From Bacteroidota bacterium (lineage in GTDB: Bacteria; Bacteroidota; Bacteroidia; AKYH767-A; JAHEYN01), in assembly GCA_023251555.1 (NCBI GenBank), contig JAHEYN010000001.1, positions 75,433-139,432 on the forward strand: a DNA stretch of 64,000 nucleotides, written 5' to 3'. The stretch's first letter is position 1; each line of letters opens with the position of its first letter. The notes beneath the pieces are model-generated. The model was not told where the DNA came from, searched no databases, and worked only from the letters and a program-made list of their open reading frames with translations. A program made the position numbers and the translations under genes. Below, piece after piece: positions 3,953 through 34,428 of the stretch.

Positions 3953-4069
3953 TATCCCTGTAAAAAATCAAAAAGGGTATCAAACAATGGAGTTAAAAGT
4001 ACTTGACTCTTCCCGTTTTTTTTTCTATATTTAAAGCATGTTGAATTTTAACTTAAAACCGGTAAGATT

Positions 4070-7027
4070 ATGAAATACAATGAAAAAATTATCAGGGTTG
4101 CGGCCCTGTCTTTAGTTTGTGCATCCGTACTCCTGTTTTTCCGCGAAAAAGGAGACTCCTTTTCATCAGGAAAAACCGCACACAGTTTTGATCCGTTTGA
4201 AAAGCATGCTGCCCCTGCTTACATAAAATCCCCCCTGAAAAAACCGGGCGTGAAGCCCGGTGAAAGAAGCAATGTAAAGATGGTGGAAAACTTCTTATCA
4301 CTCCCCCTGATCTTCAGGAAGAATATGGGGCAGTGGAACCCTGACGTTTTGTTTTGCGGGATGACATCAGGGGCTTCGGTCGCTTTTAAAAAGAACGGAC
4401 TTGCTTTTTGCGCTTCAAGGGAAGATGAAACTGCAAAGCATGCTGTTTCTCCAAAGGAGAACCAGGAAGATGTGTATGAATATCTGCAGTGGGATATGAC
4501 TTTTTCCGGTGCCAGGTCATCAGTAAAAATTTATGCTGAAGGCGAAGAGGACAGCCGGACAAATTATATTTTTGGCCAGGACGCTTCAAAATGGGTGATG
4601 AATGTTCCGGATTACCGGAGACTGAGATATGACGGCATCTATAAGAATGTTGACCTGCGTTACTATGGCTTGCAAAATAACCAGCTTAAGTATGATTTCG
4701 TGGTTAACCCCGGGGGCGATATCAGGGATATCCGGCTTTCTTTTACAGGGATAGAGTCGCTTTCCCTGAATGATGCGGGAGAACTTGAGATTACAACCCG
4801 CTTTGGTGTGGTGAAAGAGGCTGCTCCTTATTCTTACCAGGCTGCCGGTGGTGTTTCTGCACCTGTGGCGGTGAGGTATGAAATTAAGGATGATGGTAAG
4901 TCTTTCGGGTTCCGGGTTGACGAACAATATGACAAGACGCTCCCGCTTGTGATTGACCCTGTCTCCCTCAAGTGGAGCACATATATGAAAGCCACCGGGA
5001 ATAACTTTAATAATTATTCTTACGATGTGGCTGTTGACGCCTCTAAAAATGTTTATATAGTGGGTAAGTGCGACAATACTTTTCCTACTACCACGGGCGC
5101 AGCATACGGCGGGTCCACCACTGATGCTTTTGTAAGCAAGCTTAATTCTTCGGGTACGGCCCTTGTTTACTCTACCTACCTTGGCGGATCCAATGTGGAT
5201 GGGGCCATGAGCGTTATGGCAAACAGCAATGGGGAGGCTTATGTGGCGGGTTACACTACATCTACAAATTTCCCCACTACTGCGGGAGTTAAGCAAACTG
5301 CCTACGCCGGAGGCTTTGGGAATGATTGTTTTGTAACCAAACTCAACAGTGCGGGAGGTATCGGGTTTTCCACCTACCTCGGGGGAGGGGGAGAAGACCA
5401 GGCATGGTCACTTTTCTTAGCCAGCGGGGGAGAAATATATCTCACAGGGTTCTCTTCTTCAGTGAATTTCCCTGTTACTGCGGGTGCCTACCAGACTACA
5501 AACGCCATGGCAGGTATGAATGATGCGATTATTGTAAAACTTAATTCCTCGGCCAGCACCCTGTTGTATTCCACCTATCTGGGCGGAGCCGGACAGGTGG
5601 TTGCATGCCCCCAGGTCGACTGCGACAATATGTTTTGTTATGACAATGTCGCCTGTACAAATTTCAATGTGCTGAATGACTGGGGCTATGGTATCTGGGT
5701 GAACTCTTCGGGCGAAGCTTATGTTGCAGGAACTACCGAATCTCCCGAATTCCCTGTTACTGCGGGTGCGAAGCAGACTGTATTCGGAGGCGGGACAAAG
5801 GACGGGTTTGCAGTAAAACTGAACTCTGCCGGCACAGCTCTTTCCTATGCTACTTTCCTCGGCGGTTCCGCTGACGATTTTGCCGCTGATGTGTATGTTA
5901 ACGGCAGCGGTGAGGCTTATGTGGCCGGCAGGACGGAGTCAGGTAATTTTCCCACTACAGCAGGCGTTTACCAGACATCGCTCGGGGGAACTTCAGACGC
6001 TTTCGTTGCGAAACTCAATGCAACGGGAACGGCTTTAACATATTCTACCTATGTTGGAAAGTCGGGCTGGGATTATGCCACGGGAATCACAGTGAATACC
6101 AATGGAGAAGCGTATATCGCCGGGCGGACACAGTCCACCAACTTCCCTACTACGAGCAATGCATACCAGGCGGCATGGGGAGGGGGGAGCTGGGATATTT
6201 TTGCCTCGGTGCTCAACTCCACTGCCTCGTCTCTTCTCTGCTCATCTCTTATGGGCGGAAATGCAGATGATTATATGACCTGCCAGCTTGGAATAGATAT
6301 TACAGGTACTGTTGATACCATATACATCAATGGTACGACACACTCGACTAACTTCCCTACCACTACAGGAGTTTACCAGGCTACCAAGCTTAATTCCACG
6401 GGAGACCAGCCTGCGCTTTTTAAGATGGCAAGCTGCACCAACTCTGTACTTCCGGTCGAATTACTTGACTTTAAAGGAAATAATAACCAGGGCATAAACA
6501 TACTGCAGTGGCGGACAGTGTCGGAAACCAACTGCAATTCGTTTACCCTTGAGAGGAGCCTGGATGGTAATTCTTTTGAGCGGGTTGGAATGGTTTCATG
6601 CAGCGGTACAAGCAGTATTCCGCATGCTTATGAGTACAGGGATGACGTCGTTTCTTTTATGACAGAAGACAATACTTTTTATTACCGCCTCCGGCAGTTT
6701 GATTATGACGGCAATTATAAATATTCCGGAACCATCGCTATTGATGTGAAGGCAAGGCGCGAACTTCCTTACGTGCTTAATGTGAGCCCTGTCCCTGTTA
6801 CGAAGGAACTGAATTTTACTTTCAACAATCCTTCTGACGGACCGCTTTCTGCGGAGATTGTGGATATTGTCGGGAAGGTAGTTTACCGGCAGGACATGCC
6901 CGCCGTAAAACGGGGAATATCCGTTTCAAAAGTTACTGTTGATTTTCTCCCCGGAGGCTTATATATCCTCAGGATTGCCCGACAGGGAAGTGCAGGGGGG
7001 AGCGGAGCAAAATTTATAAAGGAGTAA
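4070..7027 (+). CDS. Large secreted protein (985 aa) with multiple SBBP beta-propeller repeats and a C-terminal T9SS sorting domain.
   Basis: An N-terminal signal/TM segment is present. Repeated units of the form YSTYLGG..D.A..V..SGEAYVAG.T.S.NFPTTAG occur about 8 times. The C-terminal ~80 aa (…VDIVGKVVYRQDM…LPGGLYILRIA…) match the T9SS CTD pattern. Confidence 0.7.
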   Translation: MKYNEKIIRVAALSLVCASVLLFFREKGDSFSSGKTAHSFDPFEKHAAPAYIKSPLKKPGVKPGERSNVKMVENFLSLPLIFRKNMGQWNPDVLFCGMTSGASVAFKKNGLAFCASREDETAKHAVSPKENQEDVYEYLQWDMTFSGARSSVKIYAEGEEDSRTNYIFGQDASKWVMNVPDYRRLRYDGIYKNVDLRYYGLQNNQLKYDFVVNPGGDIRDIRLSFTGIESLSLNDAGELEITTRFGVVKEAAPYSYQAAGGVSAPVAVRYEIKDDGKSFGFRVDEQYDKTLPLVIDPVSLKWSTYMKATGNNFNNYSYDVAVDASKNVYIVGKCDNTFPTTTGAAYGGSTTDAFVSKLNSSGTALVYSTYLGGSNVDGAMSVMANSNGEAYVAGYTTSTNFPTTAGVKQTAYAGGFGNDCFVTKLNSAGGIGFSTYLGGGGEDQAWSLFLASGGEIYLTGFSSSVNFPVTAGAYQTTNAMAGMNDAIIVKLNSSASTLLYSTYLGGAGQVVACPQVDCDNMFCYDNVACTNFNVLNDWGYGIWVNSSGEAYVAGTTESPEFPVTAGAKQTVFGGGTKDGFAVKLNSAGTALSYATFLGGSADDFAADVYVNGSGEAYVAGRTESGNFPTTAGVYQTSLGGTSDAFVAKLNATGTALTYSTYVGKSGWDYATGITVNTNGEAYIAGRTQSTNFPTTSNAYQAAWGGGSWDIFASVLNSTASSLLCSSLMGGNADDYMTCQLGIDITGTVDTIYINGTTHSTNFPTTTGVYQATKLNSTGDQPALFKMASCTNSVLPVELLDFKGNNNQGINILQWRTVSETNCNSFTLERSLDGNSFERVGMVSCSGTSSIPHAYEYRDDVVSFMTEDNTFYYRLRQFDYDGNYKYSGTIAIDVKARRELPYVLNVSPVPVTKELNFTFNNPSDGPLSAEIVDIVGKVVYRQDMPAVKRGISVSKVTVDFLPGGLYILRIARQGSAGGSGAKFIKE

Positions 7028-7169
7028 AAATTGATTACTTCTTGAAAATATTGTAGTCGTTACAAAAGGCCATGAAAAAGTGTGGCCTGAGGAAGCTTAC
7101 TTCTTCAAGTTTTCCATAATAAATTTCTTTTATTGTGTTTTGGCAATATGAGTTTCGGTTTATTAATAA

Positions 7170-7481
7170 TTGCAATTTGTTTCTATCATAGTAAAAATTC
7201 AAAAAAAAGTAATGCAGACAATATTTTACGCATATCAATTCTATTCAGCATTAGGCCTAATTTTAGACATAATTGGCGTTTTAATTTTATTTAAATATGG
7301 ACTTCCGAGCAAAATAAAAGAGTACGGGGGAGGGCTGTTACTTGAAGAAAATTTTGAAGAAGAAAAATTGAGAGTTTCAGAAAACAAAAAGATAACTAAA
7401 CGAGCATACCTTGGTTTGAGTCTTTTATTAGCTGGTTTTTTATTTCAATTTATAGGGACATTGTTATCGGTGAACAGTTAA
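7170..7481 (+). CDS. Hypothetical small membrane protein with two predicted TM helices. The start is uncertain and may be at about 7212.
   Basis: Hydrophobic stretches LGLILDIIGVLILF and LGLSLLLAGFLFQFIGTLL are the evidence. It lies in an A+T-rich region and nothing else supports it. Confidence 0.3.
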   Translation: MQFVSIIVKIQKKVMQTIFYAYQFYSALGLILDIIGVLILFKYGLPSKIKEYGGGLLLEENFEEEKLRVSENKKITKRAYLGLSLLLAGFLFQFIGTLLSVNS

Positions 7482-7547
7482 TTTAATATCAGAAACGGAG
7501 GACAATGAAGAAAAGAAAAACGAGTGCTAACAAGGGTTTTTAATTAT

Positions 7548-7627
7548 GCGGGAGTGGATAATTATTACTATAGAGTTTCAATTGACGGGCAAGCTATTAT
7601 AAGTAAAAAAATAGTTATTATCAAGTA
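7548..7627 (+). pseudogene. 3'-terminal remnant of a fourth member of the tandem T9SS-cargo paralog family (last ~25 codons only).
   Basis: In frame it translates to …GVDNYYYRVSIDGQAIISKKIVIIK*. This is homologous to the C-termini …GVYFYELKINNASILIDKIVIIK* and …GIYFYQITIDKQAIINDKIVIIK* of the downstream paralogs. Confidence 0.45.
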
Positions 7628-8599
7628 ATGAAAAATATATGTATTTACACATCATTATTTTTATTGCCATTTCGTCTTTGGTCTCAAACCAACTTAGTAC
7701 CCAATTATAGTTTTGAAGATACTATGAGTTGCCCGTCTATTTCTAAACTTGGAATGGTAAATGTAGTTGCTTGGTACTCTCCAACAAAAGGAACTCCAGA
7801 TTATTATAATCAATGTAGCTCTACTAATTATGCCAGTATCCCTAATAATAGGCATGGAGGTCAAGTGCCTTATTCAGGGGTTGCTTATGTTGGTATAGCT
7901 ACATTTAATTTATCAGCTCAAGAATTTAGGGAATATATAGAAGTGTTACTAAATGACAGTCTTAAATCTGGTAAAAAATATCATGTAGATTTTTACTTAA
8001 GTTTAGGAGATAGTGAACAATATATTTGCAATGATATAGGAGTTTATTTTTCGAATAATTCTATTAATGCAGGTAATTATAGTGTACTGCCGTATATACC
8101 ACAAGTTAGTAATGCAAATAACAATATGTTAAGCGATAAACTAGGATGGACAAAAATTTCAAAAAGTTTTATAGCTAATGGAGGAGAAAAATACATCACT
8201 ATTGGTAATTTTAAAAATGATGCTAATTCAGATACAATGTATGTTGGAGGAGCATGGGGGTATGATGTTGCTTATTATTACATAGACGATATCTCGGTGA
8301 TAGAAGATACTGCAACTGGAGTTGGTAAGATAAGTAATGAAAAAGAAAAATATAAGATAAAACTGTATCCTAATCCAAATGATGGGGGAATGCAGTTGGA
8401 TTATAACTTATCAGAGGGACAAACAGGCGAATTGATAATTTATAACATGATGGGAGAAAAAATAAACACTTATCATTTACTAAGCTCAAAGAATAATATA
8501 AAGATAAGTGAAGCTGCCTTAAAGAATGGGGTTTATTTTTATGAATTAAAAATTAATAACGCAAGTATTCTCATAGATAAAATAGTAATTATAAAATAA
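7628..8599 (+). CDS. Secreted T9SS-sorted protein, paralog 1 of 3. It has a signal peptide, an N-terminal ~210-aa jelly-roll/CBM-like domain and a C-terminal T9SS CTD.
   Basis: The signal peptide and the NLVPN.SFED…YYYIDDISV pattern resemble CBM4/9-type modules (inference). The C-terminal ~85 aa (KIKLYPNPNDG.MQ.DYNL.EGQTGELIIYNMMGEKINTYHLL…) are nearly identical in all three copies. Confidence 0.7.
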   Translation: MKNICIYTSLFLLPFRLWSQTNLVPNYSFEDTMSCPSISKLGMVNVVAWYSPTKGTPDYYNQCSSTNYASIPNNRHGGQVPYSGVAYVGIATFNLSAQEFREYIEVLLNDSLKSGKKYHVDFYLSLGDSEQYICNDIGVYFSNNSINAGNYSVLPYIPQVSNANNNMLSDKLGWTKISKSFIANGGEKYITIGNFKNDANSDTMYVGGAWGYDVAYYYIDDISVIEDTATGVGKISNEKEKYKIKLYPNPNDGGMQLDYNLSEGQTGELIIYNMMGEKINTYHLLSSKNNIKISEAALKNGVYFYELKINNASILIDKIVIIK

Positions 8600-8604
8600 C
8601 ATTA

Positions 8605-8637
8605 AAAGCTCTCCGATTTACCGGAGAGCTTTTTTAT
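8605..8637 (+). terminator. Rho-independent terminator candidate after paralog 1.
   Basis: There is a hairpin aaagctctccg-attta-cggagagcttt followed by a T-run. Confidence 0.5.
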
Positions 8638-8643
8638 TAAATC

Positions 8644-9618
8644 ATGAAAAAGATTTTATATTTTTCATTTTTTATTTTACATTCTGCATTTTACATTCCT
8701 TCTTTTGCTCAAAACATAGTACCCAATCCAAGTTTTGAGGATACTGCTAGTTGTCCTGATAATTTAGGAGAAATCTATAGGTCGCTTTATTGGTATTCTC
8801 CAACAACAGGTTCTCCAGATTATTATAATCAATGTAGTTCTTCTGTTTATTGTGGGGTTCCAAATAATTGGTATGGAAGTCAAATACCTAACACAGGTGT
8901 TGCTTTCGTTGGGATGGGCACATTTGTATTAGGAAATACAAACCTTAGAGAATATATACAGACAGTGCTAATTGATACGCTAAAAGGAGGCAAAAAATAT
9001 AATGTAGAATTTTATGTAAGTTTATCTGATAGTTCGCAATATGCTTGCAGTAATATAGGAGCATATTTTTCTATCAATCAGGTTACGAGTGGAAATGATA
9101 AGAATTTACCCGATACTCCACAAATCAGCAATCCCCTCAATAATATCTTATCAGAAAAAATAAATTGGACAAAAATTTCGGGGAGTTTTATTGCATCAGG
9201 GGGAGAAAAATATATTACTATTGGAAATTTTAAAGATGATGCTAATTCGGACACCCTCTATGTTGGAGGGCCTTCTTGGTATACTCTTGCTTATTATTAC
9301 ATAGATGATGTATCAGTGATAGAGGATACTACGACTGGGGTGCGGGAATTCAGTAATGAAAAAGAAAGGTATAAGATAAAACTCTACCCCAACCCAAACA
9401 ATGGTACTATGCAGATGGATTATAATTTAACGGAGGGACAAACAGGTGAATTGATAATTTATAACATGATAGGAGAAAAAATAAACACTTATCATTTACT
9501 AAGCTCAAAGAATAATATAAAGATAAGTGAAGCGGCATTACAAAATGGAATTTATTTTTATCAGATAACTATTGATAAGCAAGCAATTATTAATGATAAA
9601 ATAGTCATCATAAAATAA
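8644..9618 (+). CDS. Secreted T9SS-sorted protein, paralog 2 of 3.
   Basis: It has the same architecture as 7628-8599. The N-terminal domain is diverged and the C-terminal CTD is near-identical. Confidence 0.7.
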   Translation: MKKILYFSFFILHSAFYIPSFAQNIVPNPSFEDTASCPDNLGEIYRSLYWYSPTTGSPDYYNQCSSSVYCGVPNNWYGSQIPNTGVAFVGMGTFVLGNTNLREYIQTVLIDTLKGGKKYNVEFYVSLSDSSQYACSNIGAYFSINQVTSGNDKNLPDTPQISNPLNNILSEKINWTKISGSFIASGGEKYITIGNFKDDANSDTLYVGGPSWYTLAYYYIDDVSVIEDTTTGVREFSNEKERYKIKLYPNPNNGTMQMDYNLTEGQTGELIIYNMIGEKINTYHLLSSKNNIKISEAALQNGIYFYQITIDKQAIINDKIVIIK

Positions 9619-9630
9619 ATTACAAATTAC

Positions 9631-9672
9631 GAAAGAACCTTTGATAAAACTTCATCAAAGGTTCTTCCGTTT
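9631..9672 (+). terminator. Hairpin terminator candidate after paralog 2. This is the intact version of the hairpin that is split by the IS after paralog 3.
   Basis: The hairpin is gaaagaacctttgat - loop - atcaaaggttcttc, followed by a T-containing tail. Confidence 0.45.
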
Positions 9673-9681
9673 ACAATAGGT

Positions 9682-10659
9682 ATGAGAGGAAAAAAATTTG
9701 TTATTTACTGTATATTGTTTATTGTTTGCCATTTGGCATTTTCTCAGGCTAATTTAGTGCCTAATACAAGTTTTGAAGATACTATTGGATGTCCTAATTG
9801 GGTGGGGCAAATCAATAAGGTAACTAGTTGGTACTCTCCTACAACAGGTACTCCCGATTATTATAATAAATGTTGTACTTCCACTTATTGTACGGTTCCT
9901 AATAATTGGTATGGGAATCAAGCGTCTAATGTAGGCGTTGCATACATTGGAATAATTTCATTTTCTTTATCGGCTTCACAATTTAGGGAGTATATTCAGG
10001 TACTACTAAACGATAGTTTGAAAAATGGTAGAAAATATCATGTAGAGTTTTATGTAAGCTTAGCGGATAGTATGAATTATGCTTGTAATAATATCGGAGC
10101 TTATTTTTCAGTAATACCTATTAGTAGCAATAATTATTTATATTTACCATATACACCTCAAGTAAGTAACCCAGATAGTAATTTATTAACCGATAAAATT
10201 TCTTGGACTGAAATATCAGGAAATTTTATTGCAAATGGAGGAGAAAAATATATTACGATAGGAAATTTTAAAAATGACGCTAATTCAGATACGCTTTATG
10301 TTGGGGGTCCAACATGGTCTAATGCTGCTTATTATTTTGTAGACGATGTATCGGTAATAGAAGATACAGCAGCAACAGGATTAAAGGAATTAAGTAATGA
10401 AAAAGAAAAATATAAGATAAAACTGTATCCTAATCCAAATGATGGTACTATGCAGATGGATTATAGTTTAACAGAGGGACAAACAGGCGAATTGATAATT
10501 TATAACATGATGGGAGAAAAAATAAACACTTATCATTTACTAAGCTCAAAGAATAATATAAAGATAAGTGAAGCTGCATTAAAGAATGGTGTTTATTTTT
10601 ATCAGATAACTATTGATAAGCAAGCAATTATTAATGATAAAATAGTCATCATAAAATAA
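9682..10659 (+). CDS. Secreted T9SS-sorted protein, paralog 3 of 3.
   Basis: Same architecture as the other two. Its last ~250 nt and the first ~27 nt of 3' flank are identical to paralog 2. Confidence 0.7.
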   Translation: MRGKKFVIYCILFIVCHLAFSQANLVPNTSFEDTIGCPNWVGQINKVTSWYSPTTGTPDYYNKCCTSTYCTVPNNWYGNQASNVGVAYIGIISFSLSASQFREYIQVLLNDSLKNGRKYHVEFYVSLADSMNYACNNIGAYFSVIPISSNNYLYLPYTPQVSNPDSNLLTDKISWTEISGNFIANGGEKYITIGNFKNDANSDTLYVGGPTWSNAAYYFVDDVSVIEDTAATGLKELSNEKEKYKIKLYPNPNDGTMQMDYSLTEGQTGELIIYNMMGEKINTYHLLSSKNNIKISEAALKNGVYFYQITIDKQAIINDKIVIIK

Positions 10660-10784
10660 ATTACAAATTACGAAAGAACCTTTGATTGTAAATCTTCAGC
10701 GAAAGTTGGATAATTAAAGGTAAAGAAATAAGGTGGTATTTAAAGGGAAATAGTAATTAAATTTAACCTTTAAAATCACTAAAA

Positions 10785-11132
10785 ATGAAAGACAAACAAA
10801 GTGCAAGCTCCTATGTAAGGGAGATCAAAAGAAGAACCCGCAGGAGATTTTCATCAGAAGAAAAAATAAAGATCATTATAGAGGGATTACGGGGAGAAGA
10901 CAGCGTAGCAGCTATCTGCCGTAAGTATTCGGTCCATGAAAACCTGTACTATAAATGGAGTAAAGAATTCATAGAAGCAGGGAAGAGACGTTTGAATGGA
11001 GATACTGTAAGGGAAGCAGGAAGCGATGAGGTAAATGATCTGCGTAAAGAGAACGTGCAGTTGAAAGACGCTGTGGCGGACTTGACAATAGAGAATCGTG
11101 TGCTCAAAAAAAGCTTGAATGGGCTGGAATAA
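10785..11132 (+). CDS. IS3-family transposase OrfA with HTH and leucine-zipper-like regions.
   Basis: It has the typical IS3 OrfA features (RRFSSEEKIKII…ICRKYSV…YYKWSKEF) and a C-terminal heptad Leu region. Confidence 0.85.
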   Translation: MKDKQSASSYVREIKRRTRRRFSSEEKIKIIIEGLRGEDSVAAICRKYSVHENLYYKWSKEFIEAGKRRLNGDTVREAGSDEVNDLRKENVQLKDAVADLTIENRVLKKSLNGLE

Positions 11133-11149
11133 GGGAAAGGAAAAAGCAC

Positions 11150-12157
11150 ATGAGATTCAGTCAAAGTGAAAAGATGGAAATCATCAAGATGGTTGATGGT
11201 TCCAATGTAAGTGCTAACAGGACATTGAAGGAACTGGGAATAAATCCAAGCACGTTCTACATCTGGTATAAACGGTATCTGGAGGGAGGCATTGATGCAC
11301 TTGCCACAGGCAAGAGAGAGCAGAACCGGATATGGAATAAAATACCTGTTCAGGAAAAGAACCGTGTAATTGACGTAGCCTTGGATAAGCCCGAGCTTTC
11401 TTCGCGGGAACTTGCCTGGCATATCACCGATAAGCATAAGCGATACATCAGTGAAAGCAGTGTTTATAGGATACTTAAGGAAAGAGGACTTATAACAGCT
11501 CCGGCACACATTGTTTTATCGGCCGGCGATGAGTTTGAAAAGAAAACAGGATTTGTCAATGAAATGTGGCAGATCGATTTTACTTACTTCAGGATCATTG
11601 CATGGGGTAATTATTACCTGTGTACCATTATCGATGATTATTCCCGCTTTATCGTGGCCTGGGAGCTAAAGGAAAGCATGAAATGGGACGATGCACGGTC
11701 AACAGTTGATAAGGCTGTTTTTAACACCGGATTGACACAAAATCAAATGCCTAAACTTTTATCCGATAATGGCCCCTGTTTCATTGCACATCAGTTCAGG
11801 GATTACCTGAGCGATATGGGTATCAGGCAAATTAACGGAGCTCCATTGCATCCTCAAACGCAAGGAAAGATTGAACGCTATAACAGAACGATGAAAAACG
11901 TTGTAAAGCTTGATAATTATTACAGCCCTGAAGAGCTCAAGCGGGCACTGGATGAGTTTGTTCATCATTACAACTATCACCGCTATCATGAATCGATCAA
12001 CAATCTTACCCCATCTGATGTTTTTTTTAAACGGGGAACTGCTATCATAAAACAGCGTGAAAAAATCAAACTGCAAACAATCAAAAAAAGAAAGGAGGAA
12101 TACTTCAAACTCAAACAAAAATCAACAACACAAAAAATTAACTTAACTTTGAATTGA
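11150..12157 (+). CDS. IS3-family transposase OrfB (DDE integrase core), in the -1 frame relative to OrfA.
   Basis: It has the rve-type motifs WQIDFTYF, IIDDYSRFIVAWEL and SDNGPCFIA. OrfB is in frame 2 and orfA in frame 0. An A7G run lies near the orfA end. Confidence 0.85.
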   Translation: MRFSQSEKMEIIKMVDGSNVSANRTLKELGINPSTFYIWYKRYLEGGIDALATGKREQNRIWNKIPVQEKNRVIDVALDKPELSSRELAWHITDKHKRYISESSVYRILKERGLITAPAHIVLSAGDEFEKKTGFVNEMWQIDFTYFRIIAWGNYYLCTIIDDYSRFIVAWELKESMKWDDARSTVDKAVFNTGLTQNQMPKLLSDNGPCFIAHQFRDYLSDMGIRQINGAPLHPQTQGKIERYNRTMKNVVKLDNYYSPEELKRALDEFVHHYNYHRYHESINNLTPSDVFFKRGTAIIKQREKIKLQTIKKRKEEYFKLKQKSTTQKINLTLN

Positions 12158-12200
12158 TGGCCCGAAATGCCACCTTATTTTTTAAATCAAATTCTCCAAT

Positions 12201-12980
12201 TTACCTTGAAGACGTACACCATGCTATTCTTCTACCCATTATAGGTTTACCATCACTTAGAACATGAACTGGAAAATTTGATGAGACTTTACTGATATCC
12301 AACTGTTGTTTTAATAAATAATTGACAGCACCATTTAATAACATTATAGTTTTTTCATTATAAATATCTTTTATAAATACTTTGCTTAAAAAAACTATTA
12401 CGCTTGACATTCCATGAGCAAGTCCTAAATCGCATCCTTGTATTTCTTTTTCGAAATCAATAATGGTGTTCCATTTTATTGAACCATCTTTATTTTTTAT
12501 ACTTTGTTTTTCTAATTCATCTACTAATTCTTTAATATAATTTATACATTGCTTTTTATATACCCTATTAATTAAATATACTCCGTTTCCAATTGCACCA
12601 TGAAGAAAATCAAAATTTCCATTTTTGATATCATACATCATTTTCCTATAAATAAATTCATCTAAATCATCCAAAAACAAAACATCTTCTTTCTTCATAA
12701 AATTGTTTTGAGTTAAATGCTCCATTGCCCAAGCCAAGCCACCTATTCCATCACAAAAAGTATGAAAGTTATATCCTTTGTTAATAGAGTTTAATACATC
12801 AATAATTAAATTCCGCGCTTTTTTTGCGTAAACTTCTTCTTTGATAAATTTAGAATAATAATAATAAAATAAAGCAATACCACTTTTTCCTGTTAATAGG
12901 CCAATGTTGAGATGCTCCAAATTTTCACTTTCAAGACTTTTGGTAATATTTTTCAAAGTATTTTTTAATTTGGTTATCAT
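12201..12980 (-). CDS. LanC-like (lanthionine-cyclase fold) domain protein, apparently C-terminally truncated. The reading frame runs about 15 nt into the right end of the IS and stops there.
   Basis: It has the LanC-type repeats GLLTGKSGIALFYYY, FLHGAIGNGVYL and GLAHGMSSVIVFL and ends …IAWCTSSR*, just where a WCxG motif would begin. At 259 aa it is much shorter than the ~400 aa typical of LanC. Its composition is extremely A+T-rich. Confidence 0.45.
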   Translation of the reverse strand: MITKLKNTLKNITKSLESENLEHLNIGLLTGKSGIALFYYYYSKFIKEEVYAKKARNLIIDVLNSINKGYNFHTFCDGIGGLAWAMEHLTQNNFMKKEDVLFLDDLDEFIYRKMMYDIKNGNFDFLHGAIGNGVYLINRVYKKQCINYIKELVDELEKQSIKNKDGSIKWNTIIDFEKEIQGCDLGLAHGMSSVIVFLSKVFIKDIYNEKTIMLLNGAVNYLLKQQLDISKVSSNFPVHVLSDGKPIMGRRIAWCTSSR

Positions 12981-12994
12981 TGTTTCATTACTAT

Positions 12995-14731
12995 TTATTT
13001 TCCTGTTCTTATAAACTCCAAAGCGCGTTCTGAAACTTCATCTCTATGTTCTCGAATTCCCTTGATTGTTGGCACTGCATAAATATCAGGTTTTATTCCT
13101 ACCCGTTGAGTTGGTCTTCCATTAGGATAAAAAACAGCATCGGCAGTAAAATATGTAAGAAAATTATTTTGGATAAGAAATGATACAGCTTCTCCATCAG
13201 TGCCTGAAGTATTATTTCCAACTAAATTTATTTTGTATAATGCCTTCATCCCCATAAGTGTCCATTCTTCAGCACTTTGAAGATTTTCATCAATTAATAA
13301 TACCACTTTCCCTCTATATTTTTTATGGAATGCTGGCAATCCCAATAAAAACATATATTTTTGTTTGGTCAATAAATATGTTCCCGGGTATTTCCAATTT
13401 CTAAAATAATAATTTGTAAGTTGTACATTTTTCTTATGTAATTTGGGCAATCTTAACAACACACTATACCATAACCAAACATTATCAACATTTCTAATAT
13501 CAAAAATCAGTGCTTTTGAATTTTTTAAATTTTTATATTTTTTTCTAAAATTTTTCATTGTCCCGATACCCGATAAATTTATATATCCTATTGAATCTTC
13601 TGATGAATATGTAAAATTATTTATTGCCGAACCGGTCATCCACTGTTCTTTTTCAGATAGGTTATTTAGATTAAAAGAGACAGCCTTTGTTATATTAGTT
13701 GAATCAGAAACTGTAATTGTAATATCTTTTCCTTCAGGAACAAAATGAGACATAAATATCCCGTTATCTATTTCACGATCAACGGAAAGTTGATGCGAGC
13801 AACCGCAATACTTTCTCAGATCATTTCTTATTTCATCAATAGGAATTCTATTAATTGAAAGGATTATATCACCCTGCTTTAAATTCGTTTTGACGGCAAC
13901 AAACGAATCAATGTCAGAAATTACGGTTTTATTTTCAATAAATTTTACGATAAATGGAATACTTCTCCAATCTATGTAAGATTTGAGCATGCCTACTTCA
14001 TGATTAAAATTATAATTATCATAATAACCATGACAGTCATTAATTTTTGTTATCAGTTCTGCAATTGTTGAATAAAATTTGGAACTATTTGCGCTCTCAA
14101 GTATTTTGGGAATAAATTGGTTAAGAATGTTATTCCAATTTTCATCTGTTATTTTCTTGTACGCGAAAAAATAATTTATGGCATTCCAATAACGAAAAAA
14201 TGCAAGTAAAGCATGAGCAGTATCCGGATAGTAATCACTTTCATAATAGTATTTATCTTTTCCATTTTCATCATAATATTTGTTTAATTCTCTTTTTAGA
14301 TATATATTTTTCCGCGGTTTGTAATTTTCTATTATTTCCCAAAGCAATCTACTATTATCTTTAGTAAATAAATTTTCATTATTAATCCATGAGAAATCAA
14401 AATTATTATATGATGTGTCTTGAGGTAAGTATTTGTAAGGTCTGTCAAGTTTTTTAACTCTACCCGGCAGCAAGATAAGTTGGTTAATCTTTTCATTATA
14501 CTCTTCGTTATTATTATCTATCAATATTTTGGGTATATATAAAATCAATGTTGTATCCCAATCAATTTTTCCTTTTTGAATTTCATGATGGTAGTATTTT
14601 AAATATCCCCATATTCGACATAATCCTTCAAGTTGCTGAATTTTTAGTGAATCAATAGTATAGATATTTTGACAATATATATGTAATATTGAAAAAAGAA
14701 ATACTAAAGAAATCAATATTTTTTTTTTCAT
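12995..14731 (-). CDS. S41-family (C-terminal processing/tail-specific) peptidase with a PDZ-like segment and a signal peptide.
   Basis: It has the S41-like motifs LIFDIRNVDN, VVLLIDENLQSAEEW and PNGRPTQRVGIKPDI, a PDZ-like LKQGDIILSINRIPIDEI and an N-terminal signal. Confidence 0.6.
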   Translation of the reverse strand: MKKKILISLVFLFSILHIYCQNIYTIDSLKIQQLEGLCRIWGYLKYYHHEIQKGKIDWDTTLILYIPKILIDNNNEEYNEKINQLILLPGRVKKLDRPYKYLPQDTSYNNFDFSWINNENLFTKDNSRLLWEIIENYKPRKNIYLKRELNKYYDENGKDKYYYESDYYPDTAHALLAFFRYWNAINYFFAYKKITDENWNNILNQFIPKILESANSSKFYSTIAELITKINDCHGYYDNYNFNHEVGMLKSYIDWRSIPFIVKFIENKTVISDIDSFVAVKTNLKQGDIILSINRIPIDEIRNDLRKYCGCSHQLSVDREIDNGIFMSHFVPEGKDITITVSDSTNITKAVSFNLNNLSEKEQWMTGSAINNFTYSSEDSIGYINLSGIGTMKNFRKKYKNLKNSKALIFDIRNVDNVWLWYSVLLRLPKLHKKNVQLTNYYFRNWKYPGTYLLTKQKYMFLLGLPAFHKKYRGKVVLLIDENLQSAEEWTLMGMKALYKINLVGNNTSGTDGEAVSFLIQNNFLTYFTADAVFYPNGRPTQRVGIKPDIYAVPTIKGIREHRDEVSERALEFIRTGK

Positions 14732-14774
14732 TGCATATTAAATATGCCAGTAAAGTTATAGTATTTAATTAGAA

Positions 14775-15181
14775 TAAGAATAGTATCAGGCAAATTAACG
14801 GAGCTCCATTGCATCCTCAAACGCAAGGAAAGATTGAACGCTATCACAGAACGATGAAAAACGTTGTAAAGCTTGATAATTATTACAGCCCTGAAGAGCT
14901 CAAGCGGGCACTGGATGAGTTTGTTCATCATTACAACTATCACCGATATCATGAATCGATCAATAATCTTACCCCATCGGATGTTTTTTTTAAACGGGGA
15001 ACTGCTATCATAAAACAGCGTGAAAAAATCAAACTGCAAACAATCAAAAAAAGAAAGGAGGAATACTTAAAACTCAAACAAAAATCAACAACACAAAAAA
15101 TTAACTTAACTTTGAATTGATGACCCGAAATGCCACCTTATTTTTTAAATCAAATTCTCCAATTTACCTTGAAGACGTACA
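14775..15181 (+). mobile_element. 5'-truncated second copy of the same IS3-family element (3' ~400 bp only: the orfB C-terminus plus the right IR).
   Basis: The sequence is near-identical to 11820-12218. The orfB C-terminal 103 aa are identical apart from an H/N and an L/F substitution, and the same right terminus …gaagacgtaca is present. Confidence 0.8.
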
Positions 15182-15208
15182 ATTAGTAATTACCGACTGA
15201 CACGGGCC

Positions 15209-15595
15209 ATGAAAAAGTATTTTCTTTCTGTTCCTTTGTTTATTGCGGCTTCTCTCTTCATTATCTCCTGTAAAAAAAACGGGACCGGGGGGGAGGCTGT
15301 TGTTACTGCATCCGTTAAACACCACGATAAAAATATTTACGGGGCCACCGTTTACCTTAAGTTTAATGCAAAAGAGATGCCATCCGATCCCGCCGTTAAT
15401 TATGATCTGAAGCTTACGGCTGACTCAGCCGGGGAGCATGTGCATTTTAAAGGGCTTTTGTACGGTAATTATTACCTGTATGGGCGGGGCTACGACAGTT
15501 CTATTGCACAGACTGTTAGCGGAGGTATTCCTTTGAAAATAAAATGGAGTGAAAGGAAACAGGAGATTGAAGTGACTGTACCGGTAACGGAATAA
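15209..15595 (+). CDS. Hypothetical lipoprotein.
   Basis: It has a signal peptide with a lipobox (…LFIISCKK) and is small (128 aa). Confidence 0.5.
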   Translation: MKKYFLSVPLFIAASLFIISCKKNGTGGEAVVTASVKHHDKNIYGATVYLKFNAKEMPSDPAVNYDLKLTADSAGEHVHFKGLLYGNYYLYGRGYDSSIAQTVSGGIPLKIKWSERKQEIEVTVPVTE

Positions 15596-15611
15596 CCAGA
15601 TGGCTTCCAGG

Positions 15612-16595
15612 CTACTCTTCCGTATGCCCCTTCAGCAAAAGTTTTCCTTTAAATGATTTTTCATCTCCGGAAGTTGTATCTGCAGGATTTTTGTTTTCTA
15701 TGTCACTAAGGTCCGGCTGCCCTGCATTTACCCATGCAGTATACCAGAAGCAGCCCGTACTGTGAATAGCCTGAAGCATCCTTCTTTCTATCATGCCGCC
15801 CAGCAATTTGCTGTATGCTTCTGAATAGGATTCTGAATAAGCCTTTTGCATTTTCTCTCCTTTCTGCACGAAAGAAAATTTCCTGTCATCTGGAAATTCA
15901 AGGCTTAGTTTTTTTTCCAGTGCAAGCACAGAATCCTTTTTCAGGTGGCTTTCCCGTATGATGTTCCATATTTTTACGGCAGGCTTGTCAAGATATTCCG
16001 CCTGTCCTGCAAAAAAATCATAATGTTCACCCATCAGTTCCGGGATTCTTGACTCCCATAACCCGTGGATGCCGGTTTGCCCCGTGAACTGCCCGTTGTA
16101 GTTGCTTGTTGTGTGCAGGGGGACATGGGCATCGGCAATATAGTGGCCGATGTTGGCAGACAGGTATAGTATTTTATCCACATCTTTTGCCTTGAATGCT
16201 TCTGTAAGTTTATAAAGAATGCGGTCAAGATACCAGGGAAGAATTCCATGTTGCACCATGCTGTCCATGGAATATTTTTTTACTGCCGCGTTCCATTGCC
16301 TTGGGATGCTGTCAATATTTTCAAACCTGTAAAATTCCATATCCATAAAATGTCTCGGAGCTTCATTTTTGTCGCTGTATCTCCTGCGGTCTGCGTCCAC
16401 AGCGTGTGCGGACAGGTACTCAATATGTTTTTTGTAAAATCCGAAAAGCTCCGGCGGCATGGTGAAAACAGCCATGTAATTGATTTTTTTATGCCCCCAG
16501 AATCCCCATGGATAAGTAACGGAGGTGAAGATAACCGGAACGATGACAATACATGCGGCAACAAATATTTTCAGAATAGGAAACCTTTTTTTCAT
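15612..16595 (-). CDS. S1/P1-type zinc-dependent nuclease family protein.
   Basis: It has an N-terminal signal followed by WGFWGH, then HFMDME, GHYIADAHVPLH and HGLWESR. These match the conserved metal-ligand blocks of P1 nuclease. Confidence 0.55.
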   Translation of the reverse strand: MKKRFPILKIFVAACIVIVPVIFTSVTYPWGFWGHKKINYMAVFTMPPELFGFYKKHIEYLSAHAVDADRRRYSDKNEAPRHFMDMEFYRFENIDSIPRQWNAAVKKYSMDSMVQHGILPWYLDRILYKLTEAFKAKDVDKILYLSANIGHYIADAHVPLHTTSNYNGQFTGQTGIHGLWESRIPELMGEHYDFFAGQAEYLDKPAVKIWNIIRESHLKKDSVLALEKKLSLEFPDDRKFSFVQKGEKMQKAYSESYSEAYSKLLGGMIERRMLQAIHSTGCFWYTAWVNAGQPDLSDIENKNPADTTSGDEKSFKGKLLLKGHTEE

Positions 16596-16655
16596 ATGAT
16601 ATAAAAACCGGAGAAAAAATTTTACTGCTTATCAGTCTCCTGCTGTCTGCCTGTT

Positions 16656-17384
16656 TTACGAATTTAAATTCACGAGAAAATCTCCTTCCAATACCGGGAT
16701 AACTGAAGTCTGGTCAGGGGTGAGGCAGTAGGCAATGTCTTTTTCTATATGTAATCTCTGTAATCTTTTCCTGTGGGAAGAATTCTCAAGGAAGTTATAA
16801 AGGTCAGGCTTTGCTTTTTCATATAAGTGTGATGCTGCGAGCGCGGAATCGCATTCGGTATAAAAGCCGGCCTTACCTGTCAGATAGCTCACTACAGCAC
16901 CTGCAAAAAGGGTGTCTTCAAGGTTAAACTTATTTTTCCAGCCTGCACACAGGCAGATTACATTTTTTCCCTCCCCGGCCATCCAGCGGCAGAGTGCGCT
17001 GATATTCAGGAAAGATCCAATTGCAACCTTATATGATCCGGCAGCCGCCCTGATCGCCCTTGTCCCGTTGGTGGTGGTCAGGGCAATGGTTTTTCCTTTA
17101 AGGTCCCGGGACATAAAACTGAAGGGGGAATTTCCAAGGTCAAACCCGGGAACCATTTCTCCTTTGCGTTCGGCAGCCACAATGAAACCCTTATTACGGT
17201 ATGCCATGCTCTCTTCCGTGGTCTCAACAGGAACAATACGCCCGGCCCCATGTTCAAAAGCCACGCAGATGGATGAGGTGGCACGCAAAACATCAGCCAC
17301 TACCACTATGCAGTCTTTACTGTCGAACAGCCCGAACAAAGCGGGAGAAAAGCAAACCTCTATTGTGTTTCCTGCTTTCTGCAT
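16656..17384 (-). CDS. 2-phosphosulfolactate phosphatase (ComB) family protein.
   Basis: It has the IVVVADVLRATSSI block characteristic of ComB and a ComB-like length of 242 aa. Confidence 0.6.
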   Translation of the reverse strand: MQKAGNTIEVCFSPALFGLFDSKDCIVVVADVLRATSSICVAFEHGAGRIVPVETTEESMAYRNKGFIVAAERKGEMVPGFDLGNSPFSFMSRDLKGKTIALTTTNGTRAIRAAAGSYKVAIGSFLNISALCRWMAGEGKNVICLCAGWKNKFNLEDTLFAGAVVSYLTGKAGFYTECDSALAASHLYEKAKPDLYNFLENSSHRKRLQRLHIEKDIAYCLTPDQTSVIPVLEGDFLVNLNS

Positions 17385-17386
17385 GA

Positions 17387-18472
17387 TTAGCTTTTTATAT
17401 AGAAAGGCATTTTCACCACCCTGGCTCTGAGCGCTTTATCGCGTACGGGGATAAATATTTCAGCACCTTCATGTGCAAAGGAAGAGTTTACATATCCCAT
17501 GCCAATGCCTTTCTGAAGGGTAGGGGACTGTGTCCCGGAAGTGGTTACCCCGATAGTGTTTCCCCCGCTGTCTTTTATTTCATAACCATGGCGCGGGATG
17601 CCCCTGTCAATCATTTCAAAGCCCACAAGTTTTTTTTCCGTTCCTTTTTCTTTCTGATTCTTTAATGCCTGGCAATTGGTGAAATCCTTTGTAAACTTTG
17701 TAATCCAGCCCAGGCCTGCTTCAATGGGAGAGGTGGTATCGTCAATATCATTTCCATAAAGGCAGAACCCCATTTCGAGGCGGAGGGTATCCCTGGCTCC
17801 GAGACCTATAGGCCTGATACCAAACTCCTCCCCGGCTTTCATGACAGCACTCCATATTTTTTCTGCATGTTCATTAGGGAAATAGATTTCAAATCCTCCT
17901 GAACCGGTATAGCCGGTGTTGGAAATTATTACTCCCTCAACACCAGAGAACACACCGCGCCTGAAGCAGTAGTATGGAATTTCCGCGAGATTGACAGGCG
18001 TAAGTTTCTGGAGTGTAGCCTGTGCCTTCGGGCCCTGCACTGCAAGAAGCGAGGTTTTGTCCGAAATATTTTTCATCTCCGCGCCCATGGTATTGAAGGA
18101 GGAAATCCATTGCCAGTCCTTTTCAATGTTGGATGCATTCACTACCAGCATGTATTCATCATGCGTAAGCTTATACACAATCAAATCATCTACAATCCCG
18201 CCCTGCTTGTTAGGGAGGCAGGAGTACTGGGCTTTTCCTTCGGAAAGCTTTGAGGCGTCATTAGAGGTGACTTTTTGTATGAGATCAAGGGCATGCGGGC
18301 CTTTTATTATAAATTCTCCCATGTGGGAAACATCAAAGATACCTGCGCTTTTCCTGACTGTTTCATGTTCGGCATTAATGCTGCTGTACAGAACAGGCAT
18401 ATTGTATCCGGCGAAGGAAACCATCTTGGCTCCAAGAGCTATGTGGGTTTGTGTTAAAGCAGTGTTTTTCAT
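17387..18472 (-). CDS. gcvT: Glycine cleavage system T protein (aminomethyltransferase).
   Basis: It has the N-terminal [37 protein letters not shown], and GcvT length and pattern throughout. Confidence 0.9.
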
Positions 18473-18477
18473 AATAA

Positions 18478-19071
18478 TTATTTTTTCCGTCCTGTTTTTT
18501 GTACCCGGTTATTGCGGAGCTCATATTCTTCATGACTTTCAGGGCAGTATGCATAGCCATCCCTGTTAAAGTCAAGGCGGTGCCCGGATTCGCTCATCCA
18601 GCCTGTTTGGCGTGCAGGGTTGCCGACCACCAGTGCATAGGGAGGCACTTCCTTTGTTACCACGGCTCCTGCGCCTATGAACGCATATTCTCCTATATTA
18701 TGCCCGCACACAATAGTGGCGTTGGCTCCTATGCTTGCACCTTTTCTGACAAGCGTTTTTTCGTACTTGTCTCTTCTCACCACCGCGCTTCTCGGGTTGG
18801 TAATATTTGTAAAAACCATGGAAGGGCCGAGGAAAACATCATCTTCGCAGGTTACCCCGGTATAGATGGAAACATTGTTCTGTACCTTCACATTGTTGCC
18901 GAGTATTACGCCGGGGGATATCACCACGTTTTGTCCTATGTTACAGCGTTCTCCTATGGTGCATCCGGGCATCAGGTGAGAGAAGTGCCATATTTTTGAG
19001 TCTTTGCCGATGGTGCAGCCTTCATCAACCACCGCCGTCGGATGAGCAAAGTATTCCTGGTTTTTCTTCAT
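18478..19071 (-). CDS. Left-handed beta-helix (hexapeptide-repeat) sugar N-acetyltransferase (WbpD/WxcM-like). This is the first gene of the glycan locus.
   Basis: It has repeated [LIV]-G-x-x-x-x-I hexapeptides ([26 protein letters not shown]) and a 197-aa size typical of NDP-aminosugar acetyltransferases. Confidence 0.7.
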
Positions 19072-20045
19072 GAGAAACGGTGTTCTTTTTTAAACAAGTC
19101 TTCCCGGGAGAGCTCTTTGAAGTAGTTGTATGTGATTTTCAGTCCTTCGGAGCGGGAAACCCGTGGTTCCCACCCGAGTATTTTTTTTGCTCTTGAAATA
19201 TCCGGCTGCCGTTGCCTGGGGTCGTCCTGAGGCAGGGGTTTGTATATTGCTTTTTGCTTTGTGCCTGTAAGCTTTATTATTTCTTCCGCAAACTGACTGA
19301 TAGTGATTTCATCCGGATTTCCCAGATTTACAGGCAAGGCGTAGTCGCTCATGAGCAGCCTGCAGATACCTTCCACGAGGTCATCCACGAAACAAAAAGA
19401 CCGTGTCTGGGAGCCATCCCCGAAAATGGTGAGATCTTCTCCCCTGAGTGCCTGTCCTATGAATGCGGGAAGTACCCGGCCGTCATTAAGGCGCATACGG
19501 GGGCCATAGGTGTTGAATATCCTGGCTATCCGTGTTTCGAGCTTATGGTATGTATGGTAAGCCATGGTAATCGCTTCCTGGAACCTTTTGGCTTCGTCAT
19601 AAACACCGCGCGGCCCGACAGGGTTCACGTTGCCCCAGTATTCTTCATTCTGGGGATGAACCAGCGGGTCGCCGTACACTTCGGAGGTGGAAGCGACAAG
19701 AATTCTTGCATTTTTTGCTTTGGCGAGGCCGAGAAGGTTATGTGTCCCTAGGGAACCTACTTTTAATGTTTGTATGGGTATTTTCAGGTAGTCAATGGGG
19801 CTTGCGGGGGAGGCGAAATGAAGAATGTAATGAAGATCGCCGGGGACGTGTACGAACTTCGTGATATCGTGGTGAAAAAATTCAAATGTTTCCAGGTGGA
19901 AAAGATGTTCCACGTTTTTCCGGTCGCCTGTGATGAGATTGTCCATCCCGATCACATGGAATCCTTCTTTTGTGAAGCGTTCGCAGAGATGGGAGCCGAG
20001 AAATCCGGCGGCCCCGGTAATAAGGATTTTTTTCTTTGCCGGCAT
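19068..20045 (-). CDS. UDP-glucuronate decarboxylase (UDP-xylose synthase) / NAD-dependent epimerase-dehydratase.
   Basis: It has [42 protein letters not shown] (a UXS signature) and a YxxxK motif. Confidence 0.8.
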
Positions 20046-33183: not shown

Positions 33184-34428
33184 ATGAGCAACATTTCTTT
33201 ACAGATAGAAAATATCTCCAAGCGCTATCTTATAGGCAGGAAGGTCAGTGCTTCCCTGAGTGAGACGGCAGGGAAATTTATCAATTATTTTTCAGGTGGG
33301 AGGGATAGAAAAAGTACTTCCGTTTTCTGGGCGCTGAAAGATGTTTCTTTCTCTGTGAAAGAAGGAGAGGTTGTTGGGATTATTGGAAAAAACGGTGCAG
33401 GGAAGAGCACCCTCCTGAAGATTCTCTCGAGGATAACGGAACCCACAAAGGGTAGAATAGAAATCAACGGAAGGGTGGCTTCTCTTCTTGAGGTTGGAAC
33501 GGGATTTCATCCTGAGCTTACCGGCCGGGAAAATATTTACCTCAACGGAACCATTCTGGGAATGAGCCGCAGGGAGGTGAAAAGCAAGTTTGATGAAATA
33601 GTTGACTTCAGCGGGGTGGAGCGTTTTATCGACACCCCTGTCAAGAGGTATAGCAGCGGCATGTACGTGCGTCTTGCTTTTGCCGTTGCAGCCCACCTTG
33701 AACCTGAAATACTGCTTGTAGACGAAGTGCTTGCAGTGGGAGATGCGGAGTTTCAGAAAAAATGCCTCGGGAAAATGAATGAAGTCTCCCAAAGCGGGAG
33801 AACAATTCTATTCGTAAGCCACAACATGGGGGCCATCAGCGAACTATGCTCTAGAGCTGTTTTCCTGCAGAACGGAGGTGTAAAAATGGATGATGAGGTA
33901 AATAAGGTATTAGGGGCTTATCTGGAAGATTATGAGGATGTCGCTAATTCGGTGGAGATAACCTCCCTTCCTGACAGCATTTGCGTTTTCAATAAAGTCA
34001 TGGTTGCCGGGGAAGACGGGAAAAGCAGGTTCGAATACCTTCTCGGCGATCCTATACAGGTGCATATTTCATATGCCATCCGGGGGGATTACAAAGATTT
34101 TAATATTGAGTTTAATTTATTCAGGGGTGTTAACTGCGTTTTCACAACTTTTAATACAGACACGGGTGATCCTGTTGAATACTGGAGGAAAGGAAAATAT
34201 TCGGCTGTTGTCCAAATCCCCGGCGGATTGCTGAAAGCAGGGCATTATGTTATCAGCCTTAAGATGAGAAGAAACAGTGATGGAGCGCATTTACACGGAT
34301 TACATGAGGTGGTCGGGTTTAAAATTTCTGAGGTGAATGTGAATCTCACACACGTAGGCTACCAGCAGGACAGGGCAGGGGATATTATTTTCCCGGGTAA
34401 CTGGAATATCATCAAACAGGAAAAATAA
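33184..34428 (+). CDS. wzt: ABC transporter ATP-binding protein Wzt with a C-terminal ~170-aa extension, putatively a glycan-terminus-binding domain.
   Basis: It has Walker A GKNGAGKST, the ABC signature YSSGM, Walker B ILLVDE and a non-NBD C-terminal domain. Confidence 0.8.
   Translation: MSNISLQIENISKRYLIGRKVSASLSETAGKFINYFSGGRDRKSTSVFWALKDVSFSVKEGEVVGIIGKNGAGKSTLLKILSRITEPTKGRIEINGRVASLLEVGTGFHPELTGRENIYLNGTILGMSRREVKSKFDEIVDFSGVERFIDTPVKRYSSGMYVRLAFAVAAHLEPEILLVDEVLAVGDAEFQKKCLGKMNEVSQSGRTILFVSHNMGAISELCSRAVFLQNGGVKMDDEVNKVLGAYLEDYEDVANSVEITSLPDSICVFNKVMVAGEDGKSRFEYLLGDPIQVHISYAIRGDYKDFNIEFNLFRGVNCVFTTFNTDTGDPVEYWRKGKYSAVVQIPGGLLKAGHYVISLKMRRNSDGAHLHGLHEVVGFKISEVNVNLTHVGYQQDRAGDIIFPGNWNIIKQEK

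Follow-up and report, generated by a model that had tools for sequence, protein, structure and literature searches.

The DNA analysed here (the window) is a stretch of 64,000 nt from contig JAHEYN010000001.1 of a Bacteroidota bacterium, and the locus of interest within it is a pair of adjacent minus-strand genes that encode a LanC-like protein and a peptidase of family S41 (Table 1). The called open reading frames (ORFs) bear out the view, taken in an initial annotation of this DNA, that the two genes lie between a complete insertion sequence (IS) and a truncated copy of the same element. Among the IS positions proposed at that stage, the right end of the complete copy at 12218 was correct, whereas the left end of the truncated copy, placed at about 14775, was found at 14783. 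The two protein folds had been recognized correctly as well, with a match of the first protein to part of the Pfam profile PF05147 (LANC_like; E 8.9e-24) and of the second to the whole of PF03572 (E 2.3e-15).

Table 1. Features of the S41-LanC locus and of the surrounding DNA (positions are those of the window)
Feature	Position	Strand	Remarks
S41 peptidase gene	12995-14731	-	578 aa; ORF call
lanC' ORF	12201-12980	-	259 aa; ORF call
Native part of lanC'	12219-12980	-	residues 1-254
Last native codon (Trp254)	12219-12221	-	
IS-derived end of lanC'	12201-12218	-	CTSSR and stop codon
Spacer	12981-12994	-	14 nt from S41 stop to LanC start; both genes co-oriented, operon-like
Native AT-rich remnant	14732-14782	-	51 bp, 5' of the S41 gene
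Complete IS3-family IS	10687-12218	+	1532 bp; TG...CA ends, imperfect inverted repeats
IS orfA	10785-11132	+	Pfam HTH_Tnp_1
IS orfB (DDE transposase)	11150-12157	+	Pfam rve/rve_3; -1 frame relative to orfA
Truncated second IS copy	14783-15181	+	399 bp; IS positions 1134-1532 only, right end intact
AT-rich block holding both genes	~7030-15181		~30% GC, against 44-47% in the flanks
Membrane ORF	7170-7481	+	103 aa
Three tandem paralogs	7628-10659	+	~324 aa each; repeat period 1019-1041 bp
Spurious ORF	15164-15325	-	53 aa; exits the second IS copy
Higher-GC gene	15209-15595		abutted by the second IS copy

Our results indicate that the LanC-like gene has lost its 3' end at the junction with the complete IS. 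Its match to PF05147 (84 bits, cut-off 23.2) is confined to profile positions 4-222 of 350, and its last native codon is that of Trp254. The residues CTSSR and the stop codon that follow (TGT ACG TCT TCA AGG TAA) come from the end of the IS, read as its reverse complement; the right end of the full IS reads ...GAAGACGTACA up to the junction and CCATGC beyond it. The initial annotation had described the ORF as ending in IAWCTSSR inside the IS, which holds for the tail and the stop codon, whereas the Cys of the apparent W-C pair proved to be encoded by the IS and not to be native. A spurious ORF that exits the second IS copy closes with the same CTSSR tail and stop, confirming that this tail is IS-encoded.

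A search with the native 254 residues as query returned 43 homologs, nearly all of them 375-440 aa long, the sole exception being the 259-aa protein P0036. In an alignment of 21 LanC sequences, the window protein stops exactly at the W-C of the motif AWCYGD, whereas all others run on for ~140 residues to include a CHG motif; W-C is invariant in this set, and YGD as well as D-x-x-x-C-H-G beyond the break are nearly so. The suspicion that the IS had cut off the C-terminal third of the protein was thus well founded, and the loss of at least one zinc ligand that went with it turns out to be the loss of two of three. Like LanC enzymes of the NisC/SpaC type (PF05147), the fragment contains the N-terminal and central helical repeats with their GxxG motifs and the histidine of LGLAHG; it no longer has a native Cys at the WCYG motif, the Cys and His of CHG or the C-terminal helices contained in the missing ~140 residues. 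Its closest solved relative by sequence is 8BYK. Having lost the last third of the fold, which when complete is an alpha,alpha-toroid of ~400 aa, together with two of its three zinc ligands, the fragment cannot act as a cyclase or bind zinc in the way LanC does.

The closest ortholog found, the LanC of locus L174 (64% identity), crosses the break point without an IS (...RRIGWCYGDMGIG...DAGLCHGTAGIAH...) and continues with ...GWCYGDMGIG...DAGLCHG.... The surviving 254 codons align to it without any frameshift or stop codon, which suggests that the truncation is not ancient. More generally, the fragment is 45-64% identical to LanC proteins of Bacteroidota class I lanthipeptide clusters whose genes lie immediately 5' of lanB and close to GG-leader precursors.

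The element next to the fragment has the hallmarks of the IS3 family, with an HTH-containing orfA and a DDE/rve-containing orfB in the -1 frame, TG...CA ends and terminal inverted repeats. It differs from known members of this family in that it lacks a target-site duplication of 3-4 bp, the left flank of the full copy reading GAT and the right flank CCA, and in that one of its two copies has been cut to the last 399 bp. The shortened copy lies in the same direction as the full one, shares 98.5% identity with it (six mismatches), breaks off abruptly within the element and abuts a gene of higher GC content. The absence of a target-site duplication fits a deletion or recombination event that took place afterwards. 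Given that the flanks of the full IS are also non-contiguous, the 3' end of lanC and the genes downstream of it were probably lost either through a deletion next to the IS or through recombination between two IS copies.

Which genes these would have been can be gauged from related loci. In all orthologous loci for which genes were called (L001-L006, L011 and L012), a gene for the dehydratase LanB lies immediately 3' of lanC, either in full-length form (~1050 aa) or split into N- and C-terminal genes, and of the 80 genome loci retrieved by means of the LanC alignment, most have LanB after LanC or near it. Small ORFs near these lanBC genes encode a leader of the form KKLxLxKE...L...GG followed by cores rich in Cys, Ser and Thr, matching the published description of class I precursors from Bacteroidetes (Walker et al. 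2020, PMC7268733). In L005 and L006, a C39-ABC exporter (PCAT) and an HlyD-like gene are added. The initial proposal of a relic of a system for peptides made by the ribosome and modified after translation (RiPPs) is supported and can be narrowed to a lanthipeptide cluster of class I. Lanthipeptide clusters are numerous in Bacteroidota, with the pinensins given as the only products isolated from the phylum (Walker et al. 2020, PMC7268733).

Several of the loci whose LanC proteins are most similar to the fragment (45-50% identity) show a fixed gene order (L001 at 9666-15574, and also L002, L003, L012, L014 and L015). In these loci, a precursor of 90-94 aa (core ...HWVDCGAHSPHWCNTKC...) is followed by LanC, LanB and a JmjC_2/cupin protein of 398 aa, the last of which points to tailoring by an oxygenase in this subfamily of lanthipeptides.

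Compared with the clusters described for the phylum (LanA with LxLxKx5L...GG leaders, LanC, LanB in one piece or split, and a C39-ABC exporter; PMC7268733), the window locus is similarly AT-rich, as are the related loci (28-31% GC), but it retains only two-thirds of LanC, with LanA, LanB and LanT all absent. A tblastn search of the entire 64 kb detected no C-terminal part of LanC, no LanB, LanA, PCAT or HlyD, and a scan of all small ORFs in the window for the leader motif yielded no match, so that the lack of precursor, dehydratase and transporter genes first remarked on for the interval between the IS copies extends to the whole window. The only candidate exporter was a generic ABC domain at 33334-33960, which is 24% identical and far from the locus. 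Counterparts of the JmjC gene and of the genes upstream in L001 and L174 are also absent from the remainder of the 64 kb. The position expected for LanB, on the minus strand just left of LanC, is now filled by the IS.

The S41 gene, by contrast with its truncated neighbour, is intact and probably still yields an exported His/Ser protease. The protein matches PF03572 with 57 bits (cut-off 24) over profile positions 2-164 of 165, and full-length orthologs with 51-61% identity were recovered. It comprises an N-terminal Sec signal, a helical domain, a PDZ-like segment at ~255-305 and the catalytic core. The Pfam PDZ model scores 19.1 bits, below its cut-off of 23.2; in a search of the PDB with the S41 family profile, the PDZ domains of DegP and site-2 proteases match residues 255-303 (E 4e-6 to 0.01). 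His234 (in NDCHG), Ser486 (in ENLQSAEE) and Glu489 are present and invariant in an alignment of 22 S41 sequences, whose profile was also used for hmmsearch, whereas the Lys of the CtpA-type TxGKG motif is missing (TSGTDG at this position). Among S41 peptidases, CtpA/Prc use a Lys as general base, and NSR, CPAF and tricorn a His. Relatives that are embedded in lanthipeptide clusters carry canonical lipoprotein signals ending in ...[GAS]C. An AlphaFold2 model (pLDDT 82, pTM 0.83) retrieved only S41 proteins as its top Foldseek matches, namely 4GHN (E 2.7e-18), CPAF (4e-14), 4L8K, the D1 C-terminal protease, CtpA, CtpB and 8VCB, in agreement with the profile-to-PDB search (best matches E 1e-19 to 1e-22). 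The S41 proteins of unknown function from Bacteroides/Parabacteroides whose structures are 4GHN, 4L8K and 8VCB, listed in the PDB under generic names (putative protease, putative peptidase, S41 protease, uncharacterized protein), together with CPAF, a secreted virulence protease of chlamydiae, are the best matches in both sequence and fold, but their identity to the window protein is only 13-17%.

A precedent for an S41 protease that acts on a lanthipeptide is the nisin resistance protein NSR. With Ser236 and His98 as its dyad and TASSAEM as its motif, it cuts the C-terminal tail of nisin, thereby inactivating it (PMC4698656). Both NSR and the window protein belong to S41, combine a His/Ser pair with the lack of a catalytic Lys, share an SAE core (QSAEE in the window), are extracytoplasmic and have a genetic link to lanthipeptides. 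However, the window peptidase is larger, with a helical N-domain of ~230 residues and a PDZ-like insert, and its motif reads LQSAEEW instead of TASSAEM; moreover, NSR is encoded by a resistance gene of Firmicutes that do not produce the peptide, not by a cluster gene. The kinship is distant, as NSR appears in profile searches with an E-value of 4e-6, behind many other S41 proteins, gives no single-sequence match at E<=1 and is absent from the top 50 fold matches. NSR is best seen as a functional precedent by analogy and not as a family assignment for the window protein.

Several lines of evidence connect this S41 family with LanC. The closest ortholog of the window peptidase (P0046, 60% identity), encoded on the 3.5-kb contig of L174 (run ERR10503186), is followed by the LanC ortholog described above in the same order and orientation, the S41 stop overlapping the LanC start as TAATG. 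Nucleotide similarity between this locus and the window begins ~34 nt inside the S41 coding sequence, and the upstream 51 bp are not alignable. The search proposed with the initial annotation for intact orthologous pairs was thus rewarded with an S41-LanC pair that is intact past the break point, and the neighbourhoods of further LanC orthologs contain LanB and GG-leader precursors. In L094 (contig Ga0265297_10057881), an intact S41 gene (59% identity to the window protein in the 22-sequence alignment) precedes a frameshifted LanC remnant of only ~88 codons from the start of the gene, with no homology beyond FCDGLSGFCWT; this locus is an independent case of decay of the same gene pair. An unrelated multi-pass membrane ORF of 101 aa (3034-3339) starts where the LanC homology stops. 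Since no IS is visible on this short contig, LanC was lost there by a route other than that taken in the window.

The association extends to the family as a whole. When 80 genome loci were fetched with LanC alone, an S41 gene of the same family was found in eight of them (L033, L046, L056, L081, L082, L083, L086 and L093; hmmsearch E 1e-153 to 1e-182), located 6-12 nt from LanC, between LanC and LanB or, in L093, between split LanB genes. Conversely, when only the S41 alignment was used to retrieve 80 metagenome loci, seven of these contained LanB or LanC. An eighth locus, L100 (379-4109), was excluded from this count: its S41 protein with a sorting tail of the type IX secretion system (T9SS) is followed by a secreted LanC-like protein of 545 aa, also T9SS-tailed and with weak glycoside-hydrolase-like matches, a LanC-fold protein that stands outside any lanthipeptide context and would be a false positive in the counting of S41-LanC pairs. 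Two other candidates were likewise discarded: in L011, the LanC of 54% identity has a gene upstream that does not encode an S41 protein, and the S41 proteins of L005 and L006 are different and distant. We conclude that the association of S41 with LanC is recurrent and operonic, yet not obligatory. No mention of an S41 peptidase as a component of Bacteroidota lanthipeptide clusters was found in the literature searched, in which NSR alone came up, with an earlier mention elsewhere being possible.

Among the loci studied, the tightest operonic embedding of the S41 family is seen in L093, where the gene lies between the LanB N- and C-terminal genes (3029-7974) and overlaps the former by 4 nt, and in L082, where it adjoins the LanB C-terminal gene on the strand opposite to LanC and the LanB N-terminal gene (12623-19324). 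Some of these clusters have further distinctive content. The S41-containing cluster of L033 (815-12113) includes an extracytoplasmic function (ECF)-type sigma factor and two radical-SAM enzymes, and those of L046 (7740-9011) and L086 (9099-9911) contain erythromycin-esterase/ChaN-like proteins (PF05139). The precursors of L046 (13605-13853) and L081 (3829-4059) have two Cys-rich modules after the GG motif, separated by a strongly acidic linker (PEEPEVEPESE and EESEEEEEPESE, respectively) that could serve as an additional proteolytic site.

Taken together, these observations make it likely that the window locus is the dead relic of a class I lanthipeptide cluster from Bacteroidota and that its S41 peptidase was a conserved accessory of some such clusters. 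In an intact cluster, LanB would dehydrate a precursor with a KKLxLxKE...GG leader and the zinc enzyme LanC would cyclize it, both in the cytoplasm; an exporter with a C39 peptidase domain is encoded in some clusters, and a subset encodes an extracytoplasmic S41 peptidase in the same operon. In the lineage of the window, the S41 gene is placed directly upstream of lanC. Activity of the IS3-family element probably eliminated all of the DNA 3' of codon 254 of LanC, the simplest routes being insertion followed by an adjacent deletion or recombination between two IS copies, and a second deletion, extending out of another IS copy, probably took away what lay upstream of the S41 gene except for the nearest 51 bp.

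In a neighbour-joining tree, the cluster-linked S41 proteins concentrate in one clade, and the window protein falls into another. Several observations weigh against the reconstruction given above. Within the clade of the window protein, S41 followed by LanC or its remnant is seen in three of nine distinct loci, while in the other six (L007/8, L009, L010, L013, L175 and L176-8) the peptidase gene stands alone with no trace of LanC. The closest relatives of the LanC fragment besides L174 (L001-L004, L011, L012 and L015) have no S41 gene nearby, and the contig of L174 ends inside LanC, so that a LanB gene 3' of an S41-LanC pair of the window subclade was not seen. Moreover, the order of the IS events outlined above is inferred. 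As regards the role of the peptidase, genes for PCAT/C39 exporters coexist with S41 genes in L083, L086 and L121, implying that S41 is not simply a substitute for a missing leader peptidase, and the similarity of the S41 protein to NSR (profile E 4e-6) does not exceed that to other S41 proteases, leaving a function in immunity as an analogy. To these points may be added the prospect of a misassembly, which is considered below.

The most serious alternative is that the S41 protein is an unrelated envelope or nutritional protease whose adjacency to the LanC fragment has no functional meaning. S41 peptidases are common in Bacteroidota, with L007 for instance containing a second, unrelated one, and most of the close S41 orthologs stand alone in unrelated neighbourhoods. 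Indeed, the first five S41 contexts inspected (51-58% identity, all stand-alone) pointed to a coincidental pairing, but this impression was overturned by L174, by L094 and by the links at the level of the family. The order, orientation and tight spacing of the two genes recur in L174, and also in L094, where LanC is decayed; no neighbour other than LanC is conserved in the S41 subclade; and 15 loci from independent retrievals have members of the family inside LanBC operons, in L093 between the N- and C-terminal LanB genes. In view of these findings, we regard a chance juxtaposition as unlikely and favour, of the two options left by the initial annotation, a peptidase that was the partner of a lost system over an unrelated module.

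A second alternative concerns the assembly. It is conceivable that an IS truly interrupts lanC but that the wrong IS flanks were joined, with the remainder of lanC and lanB located elsewhere in the genome. A repeat of 1.5 kb that lacks a target-site duplication and has non-contiguous flanks is also what a mis-join would produce, and each window protein that was looked up occurs on a single contig only, with no independent assembly to compare. Yet the junction of the truncated IS copy, with its six mismatches and its abrupt internal break, cannot result from a collapse, so that an IS-associated deletion did happen at this locus, and lanC is interrupted in either case. A partial artefact of this kind therefore appears to be a rather improbable explanation.

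The notion that two direct IS copies captured the S41 gene and the LanC fragment and moved them as a unit, in the manner of a composite transposon, fares worse still. The same element is indeed present twice in direct orientation, its left inverted repeat at 10687 and right inverted repeat at 15181 could in principle be used together, and the composition of the enclosed genes (GC content 26.4% in the LanC fragment, 28.2% in the S41 gene) is distinct from that of the flanks. However, the second copy is a 3' stub that has neither a left end nor a transposase, and target-site duplications are lacking not only at the full IS but also at the outer ends of the putative unit (GAT versus ATT). In addition, the AT-rich block runs 3.6 kb further to the left of the full IS, showing that the two IS copies do not mark the limits of the foreign DNA. 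The description of the locus as an A+T-rich foreign segment is thus accurate for its composition but understates its extent, and the suggestion of a composite-transposon-like capture is not supported and appears very unlikely. The pair of S41 and truncated lanC genes is better described as stranded, through deletions associated with the IS, than as captured. The low-GC block also contains, downstream of a membrane ORF, a trio of tandem paralogs with T9SS C-terminal sorting domains, a feature indicative of Bacteroidota; their presence likewise makes the block of foreign composition larger than the IS bracket.

Finally, the idea of a LanC-like family that is short by nature, with the 259-aa protein as an undamaged representative, can be all but dismissed, for although P0036 has the same length, it is only 28% identical, stems from a 1.8-kb contig and is the lone exception among the 43 homologs, while the window ORF closes with IS-derived codons, its closest ortholog reads through the break, and neither a full-length match to a shorter family nor orthologs that end at the same point without an IS were found.

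If the locus is indeed the remnant of a lanthipeptide cluster, the question arises as to what the S41 peptidase contributed to it. As an extracytoplasmic enzyme, it must act after export, and the ancestral protein may have acted on the exported peptide, either by trimming it or, by analogy with NSR, by degrading it for self-protection. The S41 gene does not regularly take the place of the C39 exporter, since three loci have both genes, most other contigs being too short to judge. Because the intact S41 gene outlasts LanC in the window and in L094 and also persists as an orphan, we lean slightly towards a role that would be useful in the absence of biosynthesis, similar to the resistance conferred by NSR. 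Its persistence would, however, fit a general proteolytic role or a recent loss just as well. It is tempting to speculate, though on balance doubtful, that the family represents an unrecognized periplasmic or surface protease dedicated to lanthipeptides, whose orphan members are NSR-like resistance or immunity determinants that were born in producer clusters and may protect against the lanthipeptides of relatives.

Taken by itself, the window locus is a case of ordinary genome decay, a pseudogene beside an IS, and its value lies in pointing to the S41 family. What emerges is that one family of S41 peptidases, little described so far, is repeatedly built into the class I lanthipeptide operons of Bacteroidota, sometimes between the halves of a split LanB and, in one lineage, as a tight S41-LanC gene pair. 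In the literature searched, the final maturation steps and the self-immunity of Bacteroidota lanthipeptides are not described. A conserved exported S41 peptidase is a concrete candidate for either function in Gram-negative lanthipeptide producers, and an intact S41-containing cluster is available in a cultured strain, Christiangramia sediminicola SM2212 (L086). Moreover, the survival of intact S41 genes next to decayed lanC genes offers a natural experiment, if a small one, concerning the parts of a lanthipeptide cluster that stay useful once production has been lost.

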